Virus record (IMG/VR): IMGVR_UViG_3300029952_000065
From: a virus
Length of the DNA stretch: 39,999 nucleotides
Direction: 5' to 3' (one strand)
Shown here: piece after piece, positions 24,955 through 38,101 of the stretch
How positions within the stretch are numbered: the stretch's first letter is position 1
Layout of the letters: each line of letters opens with the position of its first letter
The notes under the pieces: model-generated
Seen by the model: only the letters and a program-made list of their open reading frames with translations
What the model was told of the DNA's origin: nothing
Databases searched by the model: none
Program-made: the position numbers and the translations under genes

Positions 24955-25044
24955 GGAAGTGTGGGTGAATGGTTAAACCAGCGGTTTGCTAAGCCGCCGA
25001 AGCCTGAAAGGGCTATCCGAGTTCGAGCCTCGGCACTTCCGCCA
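24955..25044 (+). tRNA. tRNA-Ser(GCT), type II
   Basis: Acceptor ggaagtg/cacttcc, anticodon arm gcggt-ttGCTaa-gccgc, long variable arm, T-arm ccgag-ttcgagc-ctcgg and encoded CCA. Confidence 0.8.
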
Positions 25045-25076
25045 TAACATCAAAACAAACTTTCTGTGTTCTTAGC

Positions 25077-25526
25077 ATGGACACTAAAATAGTTTGTAGG
25101 GAAAAACGGCATCGTTGGGCTAAAAGGCGTAGGCAAGATCCTAAATTTTTACCTAGCATTATTTGGCGAGATTCTCGTAGCTCAGATAAAAAATTGCTTC
25201 GGGAAAATGATCTTGACAAAGACTTTATTAAGGATAAAATTAGCAATGGATGTTTTTACTGCGGAGAGACAAAAATAAGGATGACCTTGGATAGAATAGA
25301 TAATAGCTTAGGTCATTTAAAGACGAATGTCAATCCAGCATGTATGCGATGCAACTATCTACGCAGGGACATGCCATACGATGCCTGGTTGTTTTTAGTT
25401 GAAGGTATTCGTAAAGCCACAGAGCAGGGAGCTTTTAACGGATGGCTAGGCGGTAACACTAGTAAATATGCTGGTGGGGAAGATTTAATGGACTTCATCG
25501 AAGTCGGTGAAGGTCCAGAAGAGTAA
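25077..25526 (+). CDS. HNH endonuclease
   Basis: CFYCGETKIRMTLDRIDNSLGHLKTNVNPACMRCN: HNH motif with flanking Cys pairs. Confidence 0.75.
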   Translation: MDTKIVCREKRHRWAKRRRQDPKFLPSIIWRDSRSSDKKLLRENDLDKDFIKDKISNGCFYCGETKIRMTLDRIDNSLGHLKTNVNPACMRCNYLRRDMPYDAWLFLVEGIRKATEQGAFNGWLGGNTSKYAGGEDLMDFIEVGEGPEE

Positions 25527-25625
25527 AAATTCGCAGCGGTGTTGCGTACAGTTACTTCGATACCCACTGGGGGAAACCCGGCAGTGGAGTTGTACCAACT
25601 GTATGTTTTATGTTCCCTGCGATTT

Positions 25626-25714
25626 GATGACATGGGGGAGATGGATTAACCCAGTAGCTTGGAAAGCTACCATACCGCAAGGTATCGATCGTTCGAATCG
25701 GTCTGTCATCGCCA
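25626..25714 (+). tRNA. tRNA-Ser(GGA), type II
   Basis: Acceptor gatgaca/tgtcatc, anticodon arm gtagc-ttGGAaa-gctac, variable arm atacc-gcaa-ggtat, T-arm gatcg-ttcgaat-cggtc and CCA. Confidence 0.85.
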
Positions 25715-25719
25715 AGTTT

Positions 25720-25806
25720 AGAGAGTAACCAGTGGGCATGGTAGGTCGCCTCGAAAGCGACTGCTTCTAGAAATAGGGCACACCGGTTCGAGTCCGGTAC
25801 TCTCTG
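25720..25806 (+). tRNA. tRNA-Ser(CGA), type II
   Basis: Acceptor agagagt/actctct, anticodon arm gtcgc-ctCGAaa-gcgac, long variable arm, T-arm accgg-ttcgagt-ccggt; no encoded CCA. Confidence 0.7.
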
Positions 25807-25813
25807 CCTTTAC

Positions 25814-25902
25814 CGAGAGATGGGCGAGATGGATTATGCCGCCAGTCTTGAAAACTGGTATACCGTAAGGTATCAAGGGTTCGAATCCCTTTCTCTCGGC
25901 CA
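25814..25902 (+). tRNA. tRNA-Ser(TGA), type II
   Basis: Acceptor cgagaga/tctctcg, anticodon arm ccagt-ctTGAaa-actgg, variable arm atacc-gtaa-ggtat, T-arm aaggg-ttcgaat-ccctt and CCA. Confidence 0.85.
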
Positions 25903-25931
25903 ACTTTATGGTATTATCGTAAGGAGTTACG

Positions 25932-26252
25932 ATGAAGAGAAAAAATAAACCACTGTTGTCCATTGAGAACGCACGAGAATTTAACGCCAAAATAGAGTGG
26001 GAAGGAAGTTTGGATTATGTTTTGCAGAACTGGGATTTTAAAGAATTCAAAGATAAAAAATTCAATAGTTTGCGAAAAGCGTACATTAAGGCCCACCAGG
26101 ATATGATGGATTATTGCTATCTGGATAGAGTTCTAGAAGATACCACCGAACCATCAGATCTCGATGAATCTGACCGCTGCCCTTCTTGTGGAGATGCGCT
26201 GGAATTAAACGGTACATGTTATACATGTACGGGTGAGCAAAATGAGAATTAA
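25932..26252 (+). CDS. hypothetical protein with C-terminal Zn ribbon
   Basis: CPSCGDALELNGTCYTCTG. Confidence 0.5.
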   Translation: MKRKNKPLLSIENAREFNAKIEWEGSLDYVLQNWDFKEFKDKKFNSLRKAYIKAHQDMMDYCYLDRVLEDTTEPSDLDESDRCPSCGDALELNGTCYTCTGEQNEN

Positions 26253-26508
26253 GCTCATCGTTAGAAAAAATTTGCACATGAGTGAAAATAAGCAATCCGC
26301 TCAATGTGTACATGCAGCTCTAGGGCTTTACAAAAAAAATCCGCAGGATCATTGGTCATGCGTGGTGCTGGATGCTAGCGATAAAAAATTCGAGGAAGCA
26401 AAAGAAGCGCATCCAGAGGGATATGTAGTGACCGATGCGGGCTACACGGAAATTCCAGCGGGCAGTGAAACTGTTTTGGCTTTCTATGAGGATGACCCCA
26501 GAGAATAA
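26233..26508 (+). CDS. hypothetical protein
   Basis: 91 aa; start overlaps the upstream stop. Confidence 0.45.
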   Translation: MSKMRIKLIVRKNLHMSENKQSAQCVHAALGLYKKNPQDHWSCVVLDASDKKFEEAKEAHPEGYVVTDAGYTEIPAGSETVLAFYEDDPRE

Positions 26509-26696
26509 TGCTGATTCATTGTGATCGATGTAAGCGAAAAGTTGAAGGCGATTTTCACGAAAGGTTTACCTGCGGATTTTACGATGTAAGCTTGGGTTGT
26601 TGGAGAAAATACGCCAGGAATTACGAGACCATTATTTGCGATGAATGTATGCATGCAGACCCGCAGTATATACAAAATTATGGAGTTACAAGATAG
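26508..26696 (+). CDS. small Zn-ribbon protein
   Basis: CDRCKRK...CDECMHADP. Confidence 0.4.
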   Translation: MLIHCDRCKRKVEGDFHERFTCGFYDVSLGCWRKYARNYETIICDECMHADPQYIQNYGVTR

Positions 26697-26779
26697 GCCC
26701 GGATGGCGAAATTGGAAGACGCGCTCGGCTTAAGATCGAGTCCGAAAGGGTGGGGGTTCGAGTCCCCCTCTGGGTACCA
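26697..26779 (+). tRNA. tRNA-Leu(TAA), type II
   Basis: Acceptor gcccgga/tctgggt, anticodon arm ctcgg-ctTAAga-tcgag, variable arm, T-arm ggggg-ttcgagt-ccccc and CCA. Confidence 0.8.
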
Positions 26780-26791
26780 AAATTTGGATGT

Positions 26792-26885
26792 GGTGGGCAG
26801 CACTGGTGTGCGGCTGAGCCTTATAAACTCGGGAAAGCTCCAGATTAGAGCGACGGCGTGGGTTCAACTCCCCGGCCCACTACCA
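26792..26885 (+). tRNA. atypical long tRNA-like gene (possible pseudo-tRNA or unusual anticodon loop)
   Basis: Perfect acceptor ggtgggc/gcccact with CCA; T-loop ttcaact with only a 3-bp T-stem; best anticodon stem ctgag/ctcgg encloses a 9-nt loop ccttataaa; about 25-nt variable region containing gctc-cagatta-gagc. Confidence 0.4.
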
Positions 26886-36792: not shown

Positions 36793-36797
36793 AGTTT

Positions 36798-37025
36798 ATG
36801 AAGATTAATTTTCGAGGACAAATGGTCGAAGATAGGTCTGGTATAGACGAAGATAAACAGTATCGTTGTACCGATTGTGGGAAGGTGACATTTGGTAAAG
36901 ATTTATCTTTAGTTTCTTACCAAACTTCAATGGAAGTAAGGGGAGAACTTGTTCCTACAGGAGAAATGGTAATTAACACTCGTCTGTGTCCCGAAGATAG
37001 AGGACATGTAGTAGAAGAGATTTGA
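36798..37025 (+). CDS. small Zn-ribbon protein
   Basis: First ATG after the tRNA (MKINFRGQ...); CTDCGK...C. Confidence 0.4.
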   Translation: MKINFRGQMVEDRSGIDEDKQYRCTDCGKVTFGKDLSLVSYQTSMEVRGELVPTGEMVINTRLCPEDRGHVVEEI

Positions 37026-37028
37026 TTT

Positions 37029-37115
37029 TTGTGGAGTAAACCGTAATTGGCAGCGGGCTGCACTGTTAATGCAGTGTCGTAAGACTCTGGGGGTTCGAGA
37101 CCCTCCTCCACAGCC
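37029..37115 (+). tRNA. tRNA with GTT anticodon (Asn-like) and 14-nt extended variable region
   Basis: Acceptor tgtggag/ctccaca, anticodon arm ctgca-ctGTTaa-tgcag, variable region containing gtc-gtaa-gac, T-arm ggggg-ttcgaga-ccctc and CCA. Confidence 0.55.
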
Positions 37116-37120
37116 AAATT

Positions 37121-37212
37121 TTAGCGCTCCGGTAGAACAGGTGGGTCTTCAACTCCCTTAGCTAGTTCATCGGTAAACACTCTTCGGGGTTGAAGCCGGG
37201 AGTAGCAGCGCT
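37121..37212 (+). other. long imperfect hairpin (about 90 nt), possible bidirectional terminator or structured RNA
   Basis: Outer stem tagcgct/agcgcta, inner stems gtcttcaactccc / ggggttgaagcc; flanked by aaatttt upstream and aaaaatttttatt downstream. Confidence 0.45.
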
Positions 37213-37334
37213 AAAAATTTTTATTGGGACGTAGGAAAACCGGCAACCCCACTGGGTTCTGACCCCAGCGACCAATTTGGTCACTGCATGTTCAAATCAT
37301 GCCGTCCCAGCCAAAAATGATATTTAACGATTAT

Positions 37335-37409
37335 TCCTGCGTAGCTCAGGGGCAGAGCGAACGGCTGTTAACCGTTTGGTCGGTGGTTCGAATCCATCCG
37401 CAGGAGCCA
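37335..37409 (+). tRNA. tRNA-Asn(GTT)
   Basis: Acceptor tcctgcg/cgcagga, D-arm gctc-aggggca-gagc, anticodon arm aacgg-ctGTTaa-ccgtt, T-arm ggtgg-ttcgaat-ccatc and CCA. Confidence 0.85.
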
Positions 37410-37484
37410 AATTTGGGTCAGGAGGTCGGCGGTCTCGTACCCGATCTTCCCGTATACTGTACGCCTTCGGGCTACAGGCAGATG

Positions 37485-37520
37485 ACGGGTGTAGCTCAGT
37501 AGTAGAGCACCTGATCTAAT
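37485..37520 (+). pseudogene. tRNA 5'-half remnant
   Basis: acgggtg-ta-gctc-agtagta-gagc is an acceptor 5' strand plus D-arm with no matching downstream anticodon or T-arm. Confidence 0.35.
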
Positions 37521-37613
37521 TTACTTTGAGCGAGTTACGTGGAAGGCAACTTTGTTCATGGAGGGCAACGACCAAAGCGACTCGCTCAATAAGTTTTGAA
37601 GTTTGAAGTCATG

Positions 37614-37684
37614 ATACACGTAGCTCAATTGGTAGAGCAGCGCCATTAACGGCGCTGATGTGGGTTCGATCCCCACCGTGAGGA
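37614..37684 (+). pseudogene. degenerate tRNA-like gene (6- or 8-nt anticodon loop)
   Basis: Good D-arm gctc-aattggta-gagc and T-arm gtggg-ttcgatc-cccac, but the anticodon stem gcgcc/ggcgc encloses only attaac, and the acceptor pairs 5 of 7. Confidence 0.4.
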
Positions 37685-37764
37685 AGGCTTCTTGGGAGAA
37701 GATAGACACTTGATCAGTGGACCGTTTCGTGAAATCCTTCAATCCCACCGGTTTTAGAAAGTTT

Positions 37765-37840
37765 GCGTTGGTAGCTCAATTGGCGGAGCACTCGACTCTT
37801 AATCGATAGGCTGTGGGATCGTTGCCCACCCAGCGCACCA
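37765..37840 (+). tRNA. tRNA-Lys(CTT) paralog with non-canonical T-loop
   Basis: Closely related to tRNA 2196-2271 (tagctcaattggc.gagca...gactcttaatc). T-arm gtggg-ATCGTtg-cccac (A54/T58); acceptor gcgttgg/ccagcgc and CCA. Confidence 0.65.
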
Positions 37841-38025
37841 AGATTTAGGAATTGATTATAAGCCAGTAAGCGTGTATTATTATGATTGACCCAAATCATC
37901 TCTACACTTTGCATCAGACATACACAGGAACTGATTGTGCTTTGTGCGGGAAGCCAGCGACAGAGCATCCATTAGAGTATTGGATGATTAACGGTAAACA
38001 ACAAGAATTAGTTAGAATTCATATT

Positions 38026-38101
38026 GGGGAATGAGCTAGTAGGGTTATAGCGTTCCGCTGAAGACGGAAAGAATCCAGTTCAACTCTGGGATTCCCCACC
38101 A
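38026..38101 (+). tRNA. tRNA-Phe(GAA)
   Basis: Acceptor ggggaat/attcccc, anticodon arm ttccg-ctGAAga-cggaa, T-arm tccag-ttcaact-ctggg and CCA. Confidence 0.8.

Follow-up and report, generated by a model that had tools for sequence, protein, structure and literature searches.

Structurally unusual tRNA genes in a conserved tRNA island of an uncultured acidic-peat phage

tRNA genes and their neighbours in the window

The stretch of DNA analysed here (39,999 nucleotides, hereafter the window) belongs to an uncultured phage found repeatedly in metagenomes from peat. Its sequence was found again in more than 130 metagenome blocks, the longest contig being 178 kb, and the genome of this acidic-peat phage is at least 178 kb. 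ARAGORN predicted 19 tRNA genes in the window, all on the plus strand together with every other gene (Table 1), and none in 30 dinucleotide-preserving shuffles of the same sequence. The gathering score of the Rfam tRNA model was passed by 16 of the 19, many genes scoring low, and the model gave one further match (39728-39801, CCT loop). A weak element with a UAU loop was flagged by low-threshold ARAGORN and the Rfam Sec model.

These results bear out the original prediction of about 20 tRNA or tRNA-like genes in 40 kb. Every anticodon that it listed firmly was recovered by ARAGORN, even in the less certain Lys CTT copy at 1668, and the four Arg genes said to share one array of about 500 bp span 485 bp. 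It overlooked His GTG, Gln CTG and the element at 37614, and its range for the island (24955-38101) omitted three genes that it had itself cited, at 1668, 2196 and 39728. The CCA ends it described are encoded in 16 of the 19 genes; Ser CGA and Trp stop at CC, and the 37614 element has none. Its possible Arg CCT gene at 39.7 kb was supported by Rfam and not called by ARAGORN; this gene lacks a D-arm, has a small hairpin in the variable region and folds with z = -2.4.

Table 1. Features of the window discussed in the text
Feature	Position	Strand	Support
Thg1-like 3'-5' nucleotidyltransferase	39-725	+	Pfam Thg1 1.5e-11; phrog_4717 1e-47
tRNA-Lys(CTT), irregular D-arm, CCA encoded	1668-1745	+	ARAGORN; Rfam 37.6 bits
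tRNA-Lys(CTT), near-consensus	2196-2271	+	ARAGORN; Rfam 69.1 bits
RelA/SpoT-type HD hydrolase domain protein	9602-10372	+	Pfam HD_4 6.9e-9; NCBIfam spoT_relA 1.3e-13
Terminator-like hairpin, immediately 5' of Ser sub-array	24923-24942	+	
tRNA-Ser(GCT), class II	24955-25044	+	ARAGORN; Rfam
HNH / endonuclease VII-like gene within Ser array	25077-25526	+	phrog_1035 9.8e-15
tRNA-Ser(GGA), class II	25626-25714	+	ARAGORN; Rfam
tRNA-Ser(CGA), irregular	25720-25808	+	ARAGORN; Rfam tRNA below threshold, Sec model 26.7 bits
tRNA-Ser(TGA), class II	25814-25902	+	ARAGORN; Rfam
Pth2-type peptidyl/aminoacyl-tRNA hydrolase	26242-26508	+	NCBIfam arch_pth2 3e-11; Pfam PTH2
tRNA-Leu(TAA), class II	26697-26779	+	ARAGORN; Rfam
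Weak tRNA-like element, UAU anticodon loop	26790-26885	+	Low-threshold ARAGORN; Rfam Sec 27.4 bits, E 0.078
RlaP-family nucleotidyltransferase	33108-33941	+	Pfam RlaP 2.4e-18; phrog_388 4.7e-46
Small HNH endonuclease	34077-34349	+	Pfam HNH 1.2e-5
Terminator-like hairpin, immediately 5' of main array	35639-35660	+	
tRNA-Trp(CCA), irregular D region	35670-35745	+	ARAGORN; Rfam
tRNA-His(GTG)	35772-35852	+	ARAGORN (35773-35852); Rfam Sec model 31 bits only
tRNA-Arg(CCG), 3-bp D-stem type	36308-36385	+	ARAGORN; Rfam
tRNA-Arg(GCG), near-consensus	36438-36513	+	ARAGORN; Rfam 62.2 bits
tRNA-Arg(ACG)	36519-36595	+	ARAGORN; Rfam
tRNA-Arg(TCG), swapped T-loop pair A54/U58, loop AUCGUAC	36716-36792	+	ARAGORN
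tRNA-Asn(GTT), extra-armed	37030-37116	+	ARAGORN; Rfam
Irregular 97-nt hairpin between the two extra-armed tRNAs	37120-37216	+	Fold z = -2.45
tRNA-Gln(CTG), extra-armed	37225-37313	+	ARAGORN; Rfam
tRNA-Asn(GTT), ordinary class I	37335-37409	+	ARAGORN; Rfam 65.7 bits
tRNA-like gene, 6-nt anticodon loop AUUAAC, 4-bp acceptor	37614-37684	+	ARAGORN
tRNA-Lys(CTT), swapped T-loop pair A54/U58	37765-37840	+	ARAGORN; Rfam
tRNA-Phe(GAA)	38026-38101	+	ARAGORN; Rfam
271-aa phage protein	38199-39014	+	47 homologues
HNH_5 endonuclease	39084-39629	+	Pfam HNH_5 1.6e-14
tRNA-like gene, CCT anticodon loop, CCA encoded	39728-39804	+	Rfam tRNA 36.6 bits; no ARAGORN call

Several members depart from the usual form. 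In tRNA-His, G-1 is encoded in the genome at 35772 and faces C73. The Arg ACG gene shares 73-77% identity with the CCG and TCG genes and is their paralogue. For Ser CGA, a fold with an 8-bp acceptor and a 4-bp T stem is possible. The UAU element has a D-stem with a tetraloop, a long variable arm and a possible acceptor of 8-9 bp, and its minimum-energy fold is a cloverleaf, yet with z = -0.4; whether it is allo-tRNA-like is uncertain. The 37614 element, whose L007 copy has the loop AUUUAC, is probably degenerate or non-decoding, and a remnant of a tRNA 5'-half lies at 37484.

Enzymes related to tRNA care are encoded nearby. The Thg1-like gene, truncated by the window start and complete in L032 (281 aa), is predicted from its sequence to act in tRNA 5'-end repair or on the G-1 of tRNA-His. 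Proteins of the RlaP family were shown biochemically to restore 3' nucleotides of damaged RNA (PMC12776372). The spoT_relA match covers the N-terminal hydrolase part only, and the protein is similar to a small alarmone hydrolase. The window yielded no RNA ligase, and its PNKP phosphatase match was a C-terminal fragment only, thus the tRNA repair pathway is incomplete in the window. Three HNH genes lie in or beside the tRNA arrays, and those at 25077-25526 and 39084-39629 are probable homing endonucleases. The latter accompanies the gene of the 271-aa protein in relatives, most of which, among those examined, carry the 271-aa gene in or next to tRNA arrays; the protein had no match in Pfam or PHROG and no fold match in PDB. 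Homologues of an island-embedded protein among cultured and predicted viral proteins were phage proteins only. An APC-family amino-acid permease gene follows the island in the source phage and in L009.

The term "jumbo-phage tRNA island" in the original prediction held in part. Several window proteins match PHROG phage families, HNH genes are interspersed, a single strand is used, and on the recurring contigs genes of nucleotide metabolism and DNA methylases lie upstream, all of which supports a phage tRNA island. Jumbo size is not apparent for this genome, the longest contig being 178 kb, though relatives lie on 463-kb contigs. As for the host, TnpB, 73-76% identical to proteins of Acidobacteriaceae/Terriglobales MAGs and the sole basis for an assignment, tentatively suggests Acidobacteriaceae.

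Conservation of the array and extra variable arms

Metagenomes contain 22 diverged loci with the core of the array (Trp, His, four CGN-Arg, Asn, Gln, Lys, Arg CCT and Lys TTT), and their contigs reach 463 kb. A neighbouring protein (47-75% identity) led to three of the loci, and the Gln tRNA, therefore universal there by construction, led to the other 19. The order and content of the array were kept in both sets. Near-identical strains carry Arg TCT and two Lys TTT genes beyond the window end. Between close strains, single tRNA genes were replaced by unrelated versions in otherwise near-identical arrays, and Lys CTT 2196 with the ORF at 1944-2189 is a strain-variable indel, missing in L032 and present in L033.

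Glutamine and asparagine tRNAs normally have no extra hairpin arm. Here, the Gln CTG gene has a variable-arm hairpin (GACC-AAUUU-GGUC), all four pairs of which covary, with 99.5% of cells paired among 18 distinct relatives. The Asn GTT gene at 37030 has another (GUC-GUAA-GAC), in which three of three pairs covary among 10 relatives. The hairpin between the two genes is 97% conserved in L007. In relatives, extra arms were also found on Arg, Trp, Lys and Met tRNAs, mostly next to ordinary copies. One anticodon can be served by several structurally distinct genes: long and short forms of Gln, Asn, Arg ACG and Trp, two or three His genes, and two Lys CTT genes. Nine T-loops carry a paired A54/U58 swap. 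Among 50,697 phage records and 185,579 reference genomes, no equivalent of the extra-armed tRNAs was found. The island belongs to a type already known, and the extra-armed tRNA form is a new structural variant. The structural abnormality of several tRNAs, which the original prediction did not see, is the more unusual feature of the island.

The tRNA genes might mostly be without function, either carried along as passengers or decaying, and have spread together with the HNH homing endonucleases. The position of the HNH genes, the indel at Lys CTT 2196, the many low Rfam scores and the degenerate members (37614, 39728 and the 37484 remnant) are in line with this. Compensatory changes, however, are extensive among diverged genomes and affect all helices of the Gln and Asn families, CCA is mostly encoded, and the array content was kept while the neighbouring marker protein diverged. 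Because the arm insertions covary and the T-loop changes occur as paired swaps, these oddities are maintained rather than products of decay, and we consider the passenger explanation improbable.

The identity set of tRNA-Gln consists of U1-A72, G2-C71, G3-C70 and G73; the combination of U1-A72 and G73 agrees with tRNA-Asn and with recognition by GatCAB. The extra-armed Gln gene has the whole Gln set and the extra-armed Asn gene has U1-A72 and G73, features that the ordinary short copies share. A variable-arm helix together with G73 is also what SerRS reads, ignoring the anticodon (PMC7609411; PMC5389517), so serine could in principle be inserted at CAG and AAY codons, a kind of non-cognate insertion known from allo-tRNAs and nematode nev-tRNAs. 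Allo-tRNAs with non-Ser anticodons do occur in Acidobacteria, the putative host phylum. Nevertheless, such recoding has very little probability in our judgement: the arms have just 3-4 bp (those of the phage's own Ser tRNAs have 4-5 bp) and three unpaired bases come after them, the Gln and Asn identity features are present, and the long Gln tRNA is the only CAG reader seen in the readable sequence of the source strain, so insertion of serine would harm the phage's own proteins.

Codon usage of the phage and a proxy host

We compared phage codon usage with a proxy host of only 7,094 Acidobacteriaceae codons from beside IS elements. The GC content was 44.5% in the phage and about 56% in the putative host. 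The original prediction that the island may reprogramme translation, taken as codon compensation, fits only a few genes, Lys TTT, Leu TAA and perhaps Ile UAU: AAA (two Lys UUU genes), TTA and ATA (the UAU element) were the first, second and sixth most phage-enriched codons. Lys (7.8% vs 4.1%) and Trp (1.9% vs 1.4%) also take a larger share of residues in the phage than they do in the proxy.

It fits poorly for most of the tRNAs, which read codons that the phage does not prefer and uses less than the proxy. The cognate codons of the island tRNAs had a mean RSCU of about 0.94 in the phage, and C34 tRNAs decode less-used synonyms (AAG 0.73, CAG 0.71, TCG 0.47, CGG 0.65), AAG being served by three Lys CTT genes. 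For ten of 19 cognate codons, use in the phage fell clearly below that in the proxy (ratio 0.24-0.70), including those of Arg CCG/GCG/TCG, Ser CGA/GGA/GCT, Gln CTG, His GTG and Phe GAA; the ratio was 0.28 for CGG, 0.24 for TCG, 0.39 for CGC and 0.54 for CAG. Conversely, many strongly enriched codons (ACA, TAT, ACT, GAA, GTA and GAT) have no tRNA here, nor do the commonest amino acids, Ala, Gly, Glu and Val. Further tRNAs may sit elsewhere in the phage genome. Pure compensation, in which an AT-rich phage supplies what a GC-rich host under-provides and nothing else, also leaves the two or three structurally distinct genes per anticodon unexplained, and is in our view possible but doubtful.

Another reading notes that the amino acids served by the core (Trp, His, Arg, Asn, Gln and Lys) are the complete set of six with side-chain nitrogen; together with the permease, the core would boost their use in nitrogen-poor bogs. 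This pattern is post hoc, however, and the core also corresponds to the codon boxes CAN/AAN/CGN/AGR/UGG. Single-base steps link the anticodons of these boxes, so the set could arise by duplication and anticodon shift. An added tRNA is no remedy when the amino acid itself is scarce, the NCBIfam matches to the permease, from which its substrate might be read, are all far under the cut-off, and the window has Ser, Leu and Phe tRNAs as well. We give nitrogen economy hardly any credence.

A proposed tRNA pool against loss of host tRNAs

Since most island tRNAs decode codons on which the phage relies less than the proxy host does, a replacement pool would be a better reading than compensation. Evasion of tRNA-targeting defences, also raised in the original prediction, would fit the genomic context better too, because genes for tRNA repair and care lie nearby, structurally different copies exist per anticodon, and strains swap the tRNAs gene by gene. 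We favour, with moderate confidence, a structurally divergent tRNA pool of the phage's own for a subset of amino acids, which would sustain translation upon loss of host tRNAs beside tRNA-care enzymes.

The same enzyme set was described as the answer of jumbo phages to host RNases (PMC7824862; PMC12776372; PMC3061083). The island tRNA families overlap published targets of tRNA-cleaving toxins, namely Lys, Arg, His/Asn and Ser (PMC10264068), Lys being reported elsewhere as well (PMC13056530). Mycobacteriophages, in contrast, are reported to avoid UCN Ser tRNAs (PMC10264068), while this island carries them.

The island consists of two co-oriented sub-arrays, Ser x4 and Leu (24.9-26.9 kb) and Trp-His-Arg x4-Asn-Gln-Asn-Lys-Phe (35.7-38.1 kb), with outliers at 1.7, 2.2 and 39.7 kb and three further genes just past the window end. 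Its tRNAs would be expressed and charged, and may resist nucleases, in the putative host. Phage-borne tRNA sets are a known kind of viral translation toolkit. In this phage, the pool would cover a fixed subset (Arg, Lys, Asn, Gln, His, Trp and Ser), with a minority (Lys UUU, Leu UAA, perhaps UAU and Arg UCU) also compensating for AT-rich codons. Its partners may be Thg1-like 5'-end repair, RlaP 3'-nucleotide restoration, Pth2 and the RelA/SpoT-type hydrolase, and together they would keep translation going when the matching host tRNAs are cut, blocked or depleted during infection.

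Composition and turnover of the tRNA island

ARAGORN found 19 tRNA genes in the whole window, every one on the plus strand. Sixteen of the 19 scored above the gathering score of the Rfam tRNA model, and this model alone recovered one further gene. We regard the tRNA-rich island as real, because no tRNA was predicted in 30 dinucleotide-preserving shuffles of the window. The original prediction was right in its general label of a phage tRNA island, with clustered plus-strand tRNA genes in a phage genome, and the anticodons it named (Ser GCT/GGA/CGA/TGA, four CGN-Arg, Leu TAA, Trp CCA, two Asn GTT, Phe GAA and Lys CTT) were all at their places. 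The long variable arms of the four Ser genes agreed with their description as type II, and the four CGN-Arg genes occupied nearly the 500 bp expected for their array. Every entry of the earlier gene list was recovered, but His GTG, Gln CTG and a tRNA-like element had been overlooked. Encoded CCA ends, asserted for the island in general, were present in 16 of the 19 genes, with Ser CGA and Trp terminating in CC. The suspected Arg CCT gene at 39.7 kb was supported in part: it reached 36.6 bits with the Rfam tRNA model, but it was not called by ARAGORN and has no D-arm.

Coordinates of tRNA genes, tRNA-like genes, tRNA-care genes and endonuclease genes in the window
Feature	Position (nt)	Strand	Remarks
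Thg1-like 3'-5' polymerase	39-725
tRNA-Lys CTT (three genes)	1668, 2196, 37765	+
Stand-alone RelA/SpoT-type HD hydrolase domain protein	9602-10372		resembles small alarmone hydrolase
tRNA-Ser GCT, GGA, CGA, TGA	24955-25902	+	all with long variable arms
HNH genes in or beside the arrays (three)	25077-25526, 34077-34349, 39084-39629
Pth2-type hydrolase	26242-26508
RlaP nucleotidyltransferase	33108-33941
tRNA-His GTG	35773-35852	+	encoded G-1 at 35772
tRNA-Arg CCG, GCG, ACG, TCG	36308-36792	+	485 bp
tRNA-Gln CTG	37225-37313	+	89 nt, paired variable arm
tRNA-Asn GTT (one of two)		+	87 nt, paired variable arm
tRNA-like gene, six-base anticodon loop	37614-37684	+
tRNA-like gene, Arg CCT candidate	39728-39801		Rfam only; loop TTCCTAA; good acceptor, good T arm, CCA; no D-arm

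Beyond the end of the window, near-identical strains add Arg TCT and two Lys TTT genes to the island. Its isoacceptors are biased, with all four CGN-Arg anticodons together with CCT and TCT, four Ser and five Lys. Terminator-like hairpins were found directly 5' of both sub-arrays, namely the Ser and Leu genes at 24.9-26.9 kb and the main array from Trp to Phe at 35.7-38.1 kb. In the 3' flanks of the tRNA genes, CCA is usually followed directly by A(A/G)(A/T)TTT, for example ACCAAGTTT and GCCAAATTT, which may be a common processing or spacer signal.

Several other elements were noticed within the main array. The tRNA-like gene with the six-base anticodon loop was considered as a suppressor and rejected, since its acceptor comprises just 4 bp, CCA is missing and the window's ORFs use all three stops normally. 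A split or intron-containing tRNA at about 37484-37684 was also rejected, because the intron mode of ARAGORN gave one implausible minus-strand call and no 3' half was seen by eye. The structured stretch at 37414-37613 holds a look-alike of a tRNA 5' half, GGGTGTAGCTCAGTAGTAGAGCACCTGATC, at 37484-37513. L007, one of three diverged loci (L007, L008 and L009) that were found through a 271-aa protein of the island, lacks about 115 nt of it, and the stretch is therefore probably a tRNA remnant. A 97-nt irregular hairpin (37120-37216; fold z = -2.45) separates the extra-armed Asn and Gln genes; its conservation in L007 is 97%, it is missing in other loci where both tRNAs abut, and it may represent an sRNA or a short insertion. 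The stretch from tRNA-His to the Arg genes contains two paralogous ORFs (35954-36151 and 36141-36329), each of about 62 aa and helix-turn-helix-like by eye.

Arrays of this kind, with the genes similarly ordered, were present in L007, L008 and L009, where the homologues of the 271-aa protein are 75%, 53% and 47% identical, respectively. Scanning of metagenomes with a pattern of the Gln D-arm and anticodon gave 19 further loci on contigs of up to 463 kb. All 19 contained Trp, His (one to three copies), Arg CCG/GCG/TCG/ACG, Asn, Gln CTG, Lys CTT (two copies) and Arg CCT; the Gln gene was there by construction of the search, and the other array members were independent of it. A second Gln CTG and Lys TTT often followed the series.

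The window and L007 have in common a block that is 97-100% identical including its spacers, flanked by protein genes of only 76-81% identity. Within this block, Arg ACG and Lys CTT were replaced by unrelated versions. In addition, an indel between strains comprised one Lys CTT gene (at 2196) together with an ORF. These exchanges indicate that single tRNA genes turn over as cassettes. Selfish cargo is a rival and improbable reading of the island; we count the gene-by-gene swapping among the observations in favour of a replacement tRNA pool, as set out in the last section.

The conserved core consists of tRNAs for Trp, His, Arg, Asn, Gln and Lys, precisely those six amino acids whose side chains contain nitrogen. 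Put differently, the core covers the codon boxes CAN, AAN, CGN, AGR and UGG, whose anticodons are joined by single-base steps. The regularity may stem from what several nucleases attack, from nitrogen economy in the bog, which is also a rival explanation of the whole island, or from duplication followed by anticodon shift. Paralogy among the genes was modest, at 71-77% for the Arg genes and 71% between Arg GCG and Lys TTT.

Compared with the tRNA clusters of large lytic phages (T4, T5 and jumbo phages such as XacN1), which have homing endonucleases among their tRNA genes, the island is similar in its dense co-oriented arrays, encoded CCA, small ORFs, HNH-type endonucleases, large genome and gene content that differs between related strains. 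Those clusters have roughly one tRNA per amino acid, whereas the island has complete isoacceptor sets for few amino acids, and it differs further in its many structurally irregular members.

Source genome and tRNA-care genes

Exact look-ups showed that proteins of the window recur in more than 130 metagenome blocks, mainly from peat and bog. Contigs bearing window sequence reach 152,942 and 178,295 bp, and relatives with the same array are on contigs of 463 kb and 133 kb. With 178,295 bp as the longest contig, the window's own genome is at most a candidate jumbo phage (above about 200 kb). No close relative was found among 50,697 phage records by megablast of 15 kb, and blastn of the main array (35600-38150) against these records matched only generic tRNA-Asn genes via its ordinary tRNA-Asn. 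A scan of IMG/VR with RlaP gave no match.

The credible genes of the window are all on the plus strand, GC is about 44%, and matches to PHROG families were obtained for Thg1-like, NAD-ligase, RlaP and HNH proteins. The 10 kb 5' of the window contain genes for DNA methylases, NUDIX, dCMP deaminase, MazG and TnpB, a ThyX-like gene and a full-length Thg1-like gene. We take phage origin as established, although indirectly, since no capsid or terminase gene was present in the approximately 60 kb examined. The IS605-type TnpB gene (6361-7410 of L032, a locus from another strain) ends some 2.6 kb before the window begins and is 73-76% identical to multi-copy TnpB genes of Acidobacteriaceae/Terriglobales MAGs with GC of 55-57%. 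This likeness, the sole host hint, points weakly to a host in Acidobacteriaceae/Terriglobales. No host tRNA for comparison was contained in the Acidobacteriaceae loci retrieved.

Other genes of the phage are worth recording. Transport-type genes at 17487-22114 code for an OmpA-domain protein and for the permease and ATPase of an ABC system. Directly after the tRNA island, at 18034-19347 of L001, another locus with this phage, comes the gene of an APC-family amino-acid permease that is conserved in L009. An 826-aa protein (30351-32831) found in all strains matched the Major Vault Protein shoulder (3.6e-26) and vault repeat domains, and a vault-like protein is unexpected in a phage. For a 503-aa AAA ATPase (10441-11952), the best NCBIfam match was the proteasome ATPase Mpa/ARC model at 246 bits, below the cut-off. 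In a 168-aa protein (23104-23610), the 20-residue stretch EIRAGTGGDEATLFVG matches the conserved PCRF motif of release factors, and the remainder has no match.

Bacterial Thg1-like proteins mend truncated 5' ends of tRNA (PMC3061083), and proteins of the RlaP family add one or two nucleotides onto damaged RNA 3' ends and are required for recharging of heavily damaged tRNA (PMC12776372). Small alarmone hydrolases neutralise toxic alarmone synthetases, some of which pyrophosphorylate the CCA end of tRNA, thereby blocking the tRNA, and have a role in phage defence (10.1101/2021.04.30.441581, PMC9712102). By analogy, the RelA/SpoT-type hydrolase of the phage could counter alarmone-producing or CCA-pyrophosphorylating toxins.

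A comparative study described RlaP, Thg1 and peptidyl-tRNA hydrolases as answers of jumbo phages to host RNases (Iyer et al. 2021, PMC7824862). The window resembles these RNA-repair sets in that its tRNAs share their region with genes for RlaP, a Thg1-like protein and a peptidyl-tRNA hydrolase. It differs from them in that no RNA ligase or CCA-adding enzyme was found and that a PNKP phosphatase is represented only by a C-terminal remnant. No family match to RNA ligases (Rnl, RtcB) was obtained among the large and mid-size window ORFs scanned. The large unannotated ORFs of 863, 364 and 224 aa, in which a repair enzyme was sought, matched no family and no PDB sequence. The HAD_PNKP profile match is limited to residues 95-143 and misses the DxDGT part, and we do not accept this C-terminal-only match as evidence of a working kinase-phosphatase. 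The remnant (28832-29648) retains the C-terminal 50 residues, its ORF is broken differently depending on the strain (164+77, 195+77 or 224 aa), and it is probably a decaying gene. The repair set within the window is incomplete, and the missing genes may be located elsewhere in the genome.

The 271-aa protein (38199-39014) is encoded inside the island and belongs to no Pfam or PHROG family. Its homologues came only from metagenomic phage-like contigs, from Myxococcus phage Mx1 (170 kb) and from viral proteins in BFVD that are uncharacterised. Its AlphaFold model (pLDDT 77) had no fold match in PDB, and the matches in BFVD were uncharacterised phage proteins only. Because the homologue in Mx1 does not adjoin tRNAs, we claim no tRNA-related role for this protein. 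In more distant phages, CTA-anticodon (amber-suppressor-type) tRNAs occur near the homologue, one in L010 (7689-7763) and two in L011 (12834-13060). L012, a gp32-bearing phage contig with 15 tRNAs and a member of the 271-aa family, has a tmRNA-like gene (16694-17003) with the tag peptide DEYMSLPMAA. In L008, a 157-aa histidyl-tRNA synthetase fragment (5449-5922) stands directly 5' of tRNA-His, and this locus carries arm-bearing Met CAT and Trp tRNAs.

Extra-armed tRNAs with class I anticodons

In bacteria, a base-paired variable arm is a feature of Leu, Ser and Tyr tRNAs. Across the loci related to the island, gene lengths were bimodal, and we counted short genes and long genes, the latter having an extra variable-arm hairpin: Gln CTG (8 short, 23 long), Asn GTT (25 and 18), Arg ACG (18 and 8), Arg CCT (8 and 4) and Trp (9 and 6). 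Long Arg TCG, Lys CTT and Met CAT were single genes each. Long forms have the anticodon CTG or GTT in the window and also ACG, CCT, TCG, CCA, CTT and CAT in relatives, none of them for Leu, Ser or Tyr, and the same array often holds both long and short copies of one anticodon.

The variable region folded to a hairpin of 3-4 bp in all 47 distinct long sequences, with GNRA caps in 22 and UNCG-type caps in 10. For long Gln (18 distinct sequences), 99.5% of cells were paired and double-sided changes occurred at 15 of 23 pairs. The 7 acceptor and 5 T-stem pairs were 100% paired and covarying, and in the arm all four pairs covaried, with 98.6% of cells paired. When compared with 500 shuffles, the observed values were reached by none on four of five measures and by a single shuffle on the fifth, and slid registers collapsed. 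Long Asn (10 sequences) showed 100% pairing and covariation at three of three arm pairs. The D-loops of long Gln and long Asn are 10 nt.

The long Gln forms have G2-C71 and G73 in 18 of 18 sequences, U1-A72 in 17 and G3-C70 in 16, and every long Asn drawn has U1-A72 and G73. U1-A72, G2-C71 and G73 are common to long and short Gln, as U1-A72 and G73 are to both Asn forms. U1-A72 and G73, with G2-C71 and G3-C70 in addition for Gln, are identity marks of E. coli tRNA-Gln and tRNA-Asn and also serve in recognition by GatCAB. Since the long forms share these marks, we think that they would be charged as Gln and Asn. An alternative in line with Ser-recoding is that the long Gln and Asn forms may be seen by SerRS: they share the paired arm with class II tRNAs, but their acceptor and discriminator features fit class I families, not Leu, Ser or Tyr.

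The arm stands between the anticodon and T arms as in class II tRNAs, and its stem of 3-4 bp followed by three unpaired bases may resemble bacterial tRNA-Tyr. The difference from class II lies in the anticodons, which in the island and its relatives are instead for Gln, Asn, Arg, Trp, Lys and Met. A second irregularity was the swap of T54/A58 to A54/U58 in 9 of 200 distinct tRNAs, where both positions always change together; in the window it is present in Arg TCG at 36716 and Lys CTT at 37765. Judged from these comparisons, the extra arms and the T-loop swap are maintained.

An exact pattern of the Gln D-arm and anticodon, which diverged versions could escape, had no match in 185,579 species genomes. 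It had none in IMG/VR either, and blastn with long Gln gave none in phage records. In the literature, we found arm-bearing tRNAs with class I anticodons only as allo-tRNAs and nematode nev-tRNAs. Allo-tRNAs, whose commonest anticodon is UAU, were reported from Acidobacteria and others, and (8/4) tRNA-Ser is known from phages (Mukai et al. 2017, PMC5389517). The long forms are similar to allo-tRNAs in combining a long variable arm with a non-Ser anticodon and in coming from soil or peat sequences linked to Acidobacteria. In allo-tRNAs, however, the 12-bp acceptor branch is 8/4 or 9/3, the D-stem is long and carries a tetraloop, and toxin-antitoxin genes adjoin, whereas long Gln and Asn have an ordinary 7/5 branch, short arms and an ordinary-sized D-loop, and sit in phage arrays.

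Two elements of the Ser and Leu sub-array were compared with allo-tRNAs as well. A weak tRNA-like element at 26790-26885, the only one with a 4-bp D-stem plus tetraloop, has a UAU loop, and its anticodon stem, variable arm and acceptor are all long. Ser CGA allows a drawing with 8 bp in the acceptor and 4 bp in the T stem, and an 8/4-like drawing is possible for the 26790 element too. These features recall allo-tRNAs and (8/4) tRNA-Ser and make both elements candidate members at most. The nev-tRNAs of nematodes are eukaryotic tRNAs of tRNA-Leu origin that are charged with Leu (PMC3333845). They too are variable-arm tRNAs with class I anticodons, but the long forms of the phages have no Leu identity signs (G73, not A73).

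Codon use and function of the island

Codon use was flat across 60 ORFs of the phage, and the cognate codons of the island tRNAs had a mean RSCU of about 0.94. The tRNAs with C34 match less used synonymous codons (RSCU of AAG 0.73, CAG 0.71, TCG 0.47 and CGG 0.65). Ala, Gly, Glu and Val are the most used amino acids, and the window has no tRNA for them. The proposal that the island reprogrammes translation was followed up by comparison with an Acidobacteriaceae MAG sequence, a weakly supported proxy for the host, and it held for some of the genes. AAA, TTA and ATA, each of which has a tRNA, ranked 1st, 2nd and 6th among the codons enriched in the phage, and over-use of the cognate codon extended to TCA and TGG; against this, 10 of the 19 cognate codons were clearly rarer in the phage than in the proxy (ratio 0.24-0.70), and four were near parity. 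Given the mean RSCU and these 10 under-used codons, pure compensation for codon use would explain a minority of the genes.

Escape of phage tRNAs from tRNA-targeting defences has been described (van den Berg et al. 2023, PMC10264068), and T5 tRNA-Tyr acts against Retron-Eco7 (PMC11555353) and T5 tRNA-Lys against PARIS (PMC11464382). The families attacked by tRNases, namely Lys, Arg, His/Asn and Ser (PMC10264068), overlap with those served by the island, which likewise has spare tRNAs of these families with non-consensus sequences. Published evasion relies on point mutations by which the anticodon stem or loop differs from that of the host tRNA (PMC10264068, PMC11555353, PMC11464382), whereas the departures in the island are architectural (added arm, T54/A58 swap, odd D-arms), and any resistance of its tRNAs is putative.

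We lean, with modest confidence, towards the island being a private replacement tRNA pool, which would be kept under selection by agents able to deplete or inactivate certain tRNA families. The isoacceptor sets, the structurally different genes for one anticodon, the gene-by-gene swapping and the nearby tRNA-care enzymes argue for such a pool. A bolder proposal, which we consider tentative and rather doubtful, is that a clade of large peat phages, probably with hosts in Acidobacteria, built a second, 'tagged' set of class I tRNAs beside the ordinary copies, for Gln, Asn, Arg and Trp and in a few cases for Lys and Met, and that their short, tetraloop-capped variable-arm hairpin makes them functionally distinct, as an undescribed architectural route to a private pool. 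The arm might hide the tRNAs from host tRNases or from modification enzymes that read the variable loop. Alternatively, arm-bearing tRNAs might be selected by a phage factor or charged differently.

Phage tRNA islands, and the part they may play against tRNA-cleaving defences, are already the subject of active research, and an island with repair genes, of which this is a further example, is a known type. What is new is the conserved presence of extra-armed Gln, Asn, Arg and Trp tRNAs beside ordinary copies: a natural, covariation-supported arm on tRNAs that keep their usual identity marks, in many diverged genomes. If the arm protects from host enzymes, evasion by architecture instead of point mutation would be a new principle; if it alters charging, it would have implications for how flexible the genetic code is. 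Both ways, orthogonal tRNA design could start from the extra-armed tRNAs. That the choice of amino acids is fixed (Trp, His, Arg, Asn, Gln and Lys) offers a testable pattern for why phages carry given tRNAs.
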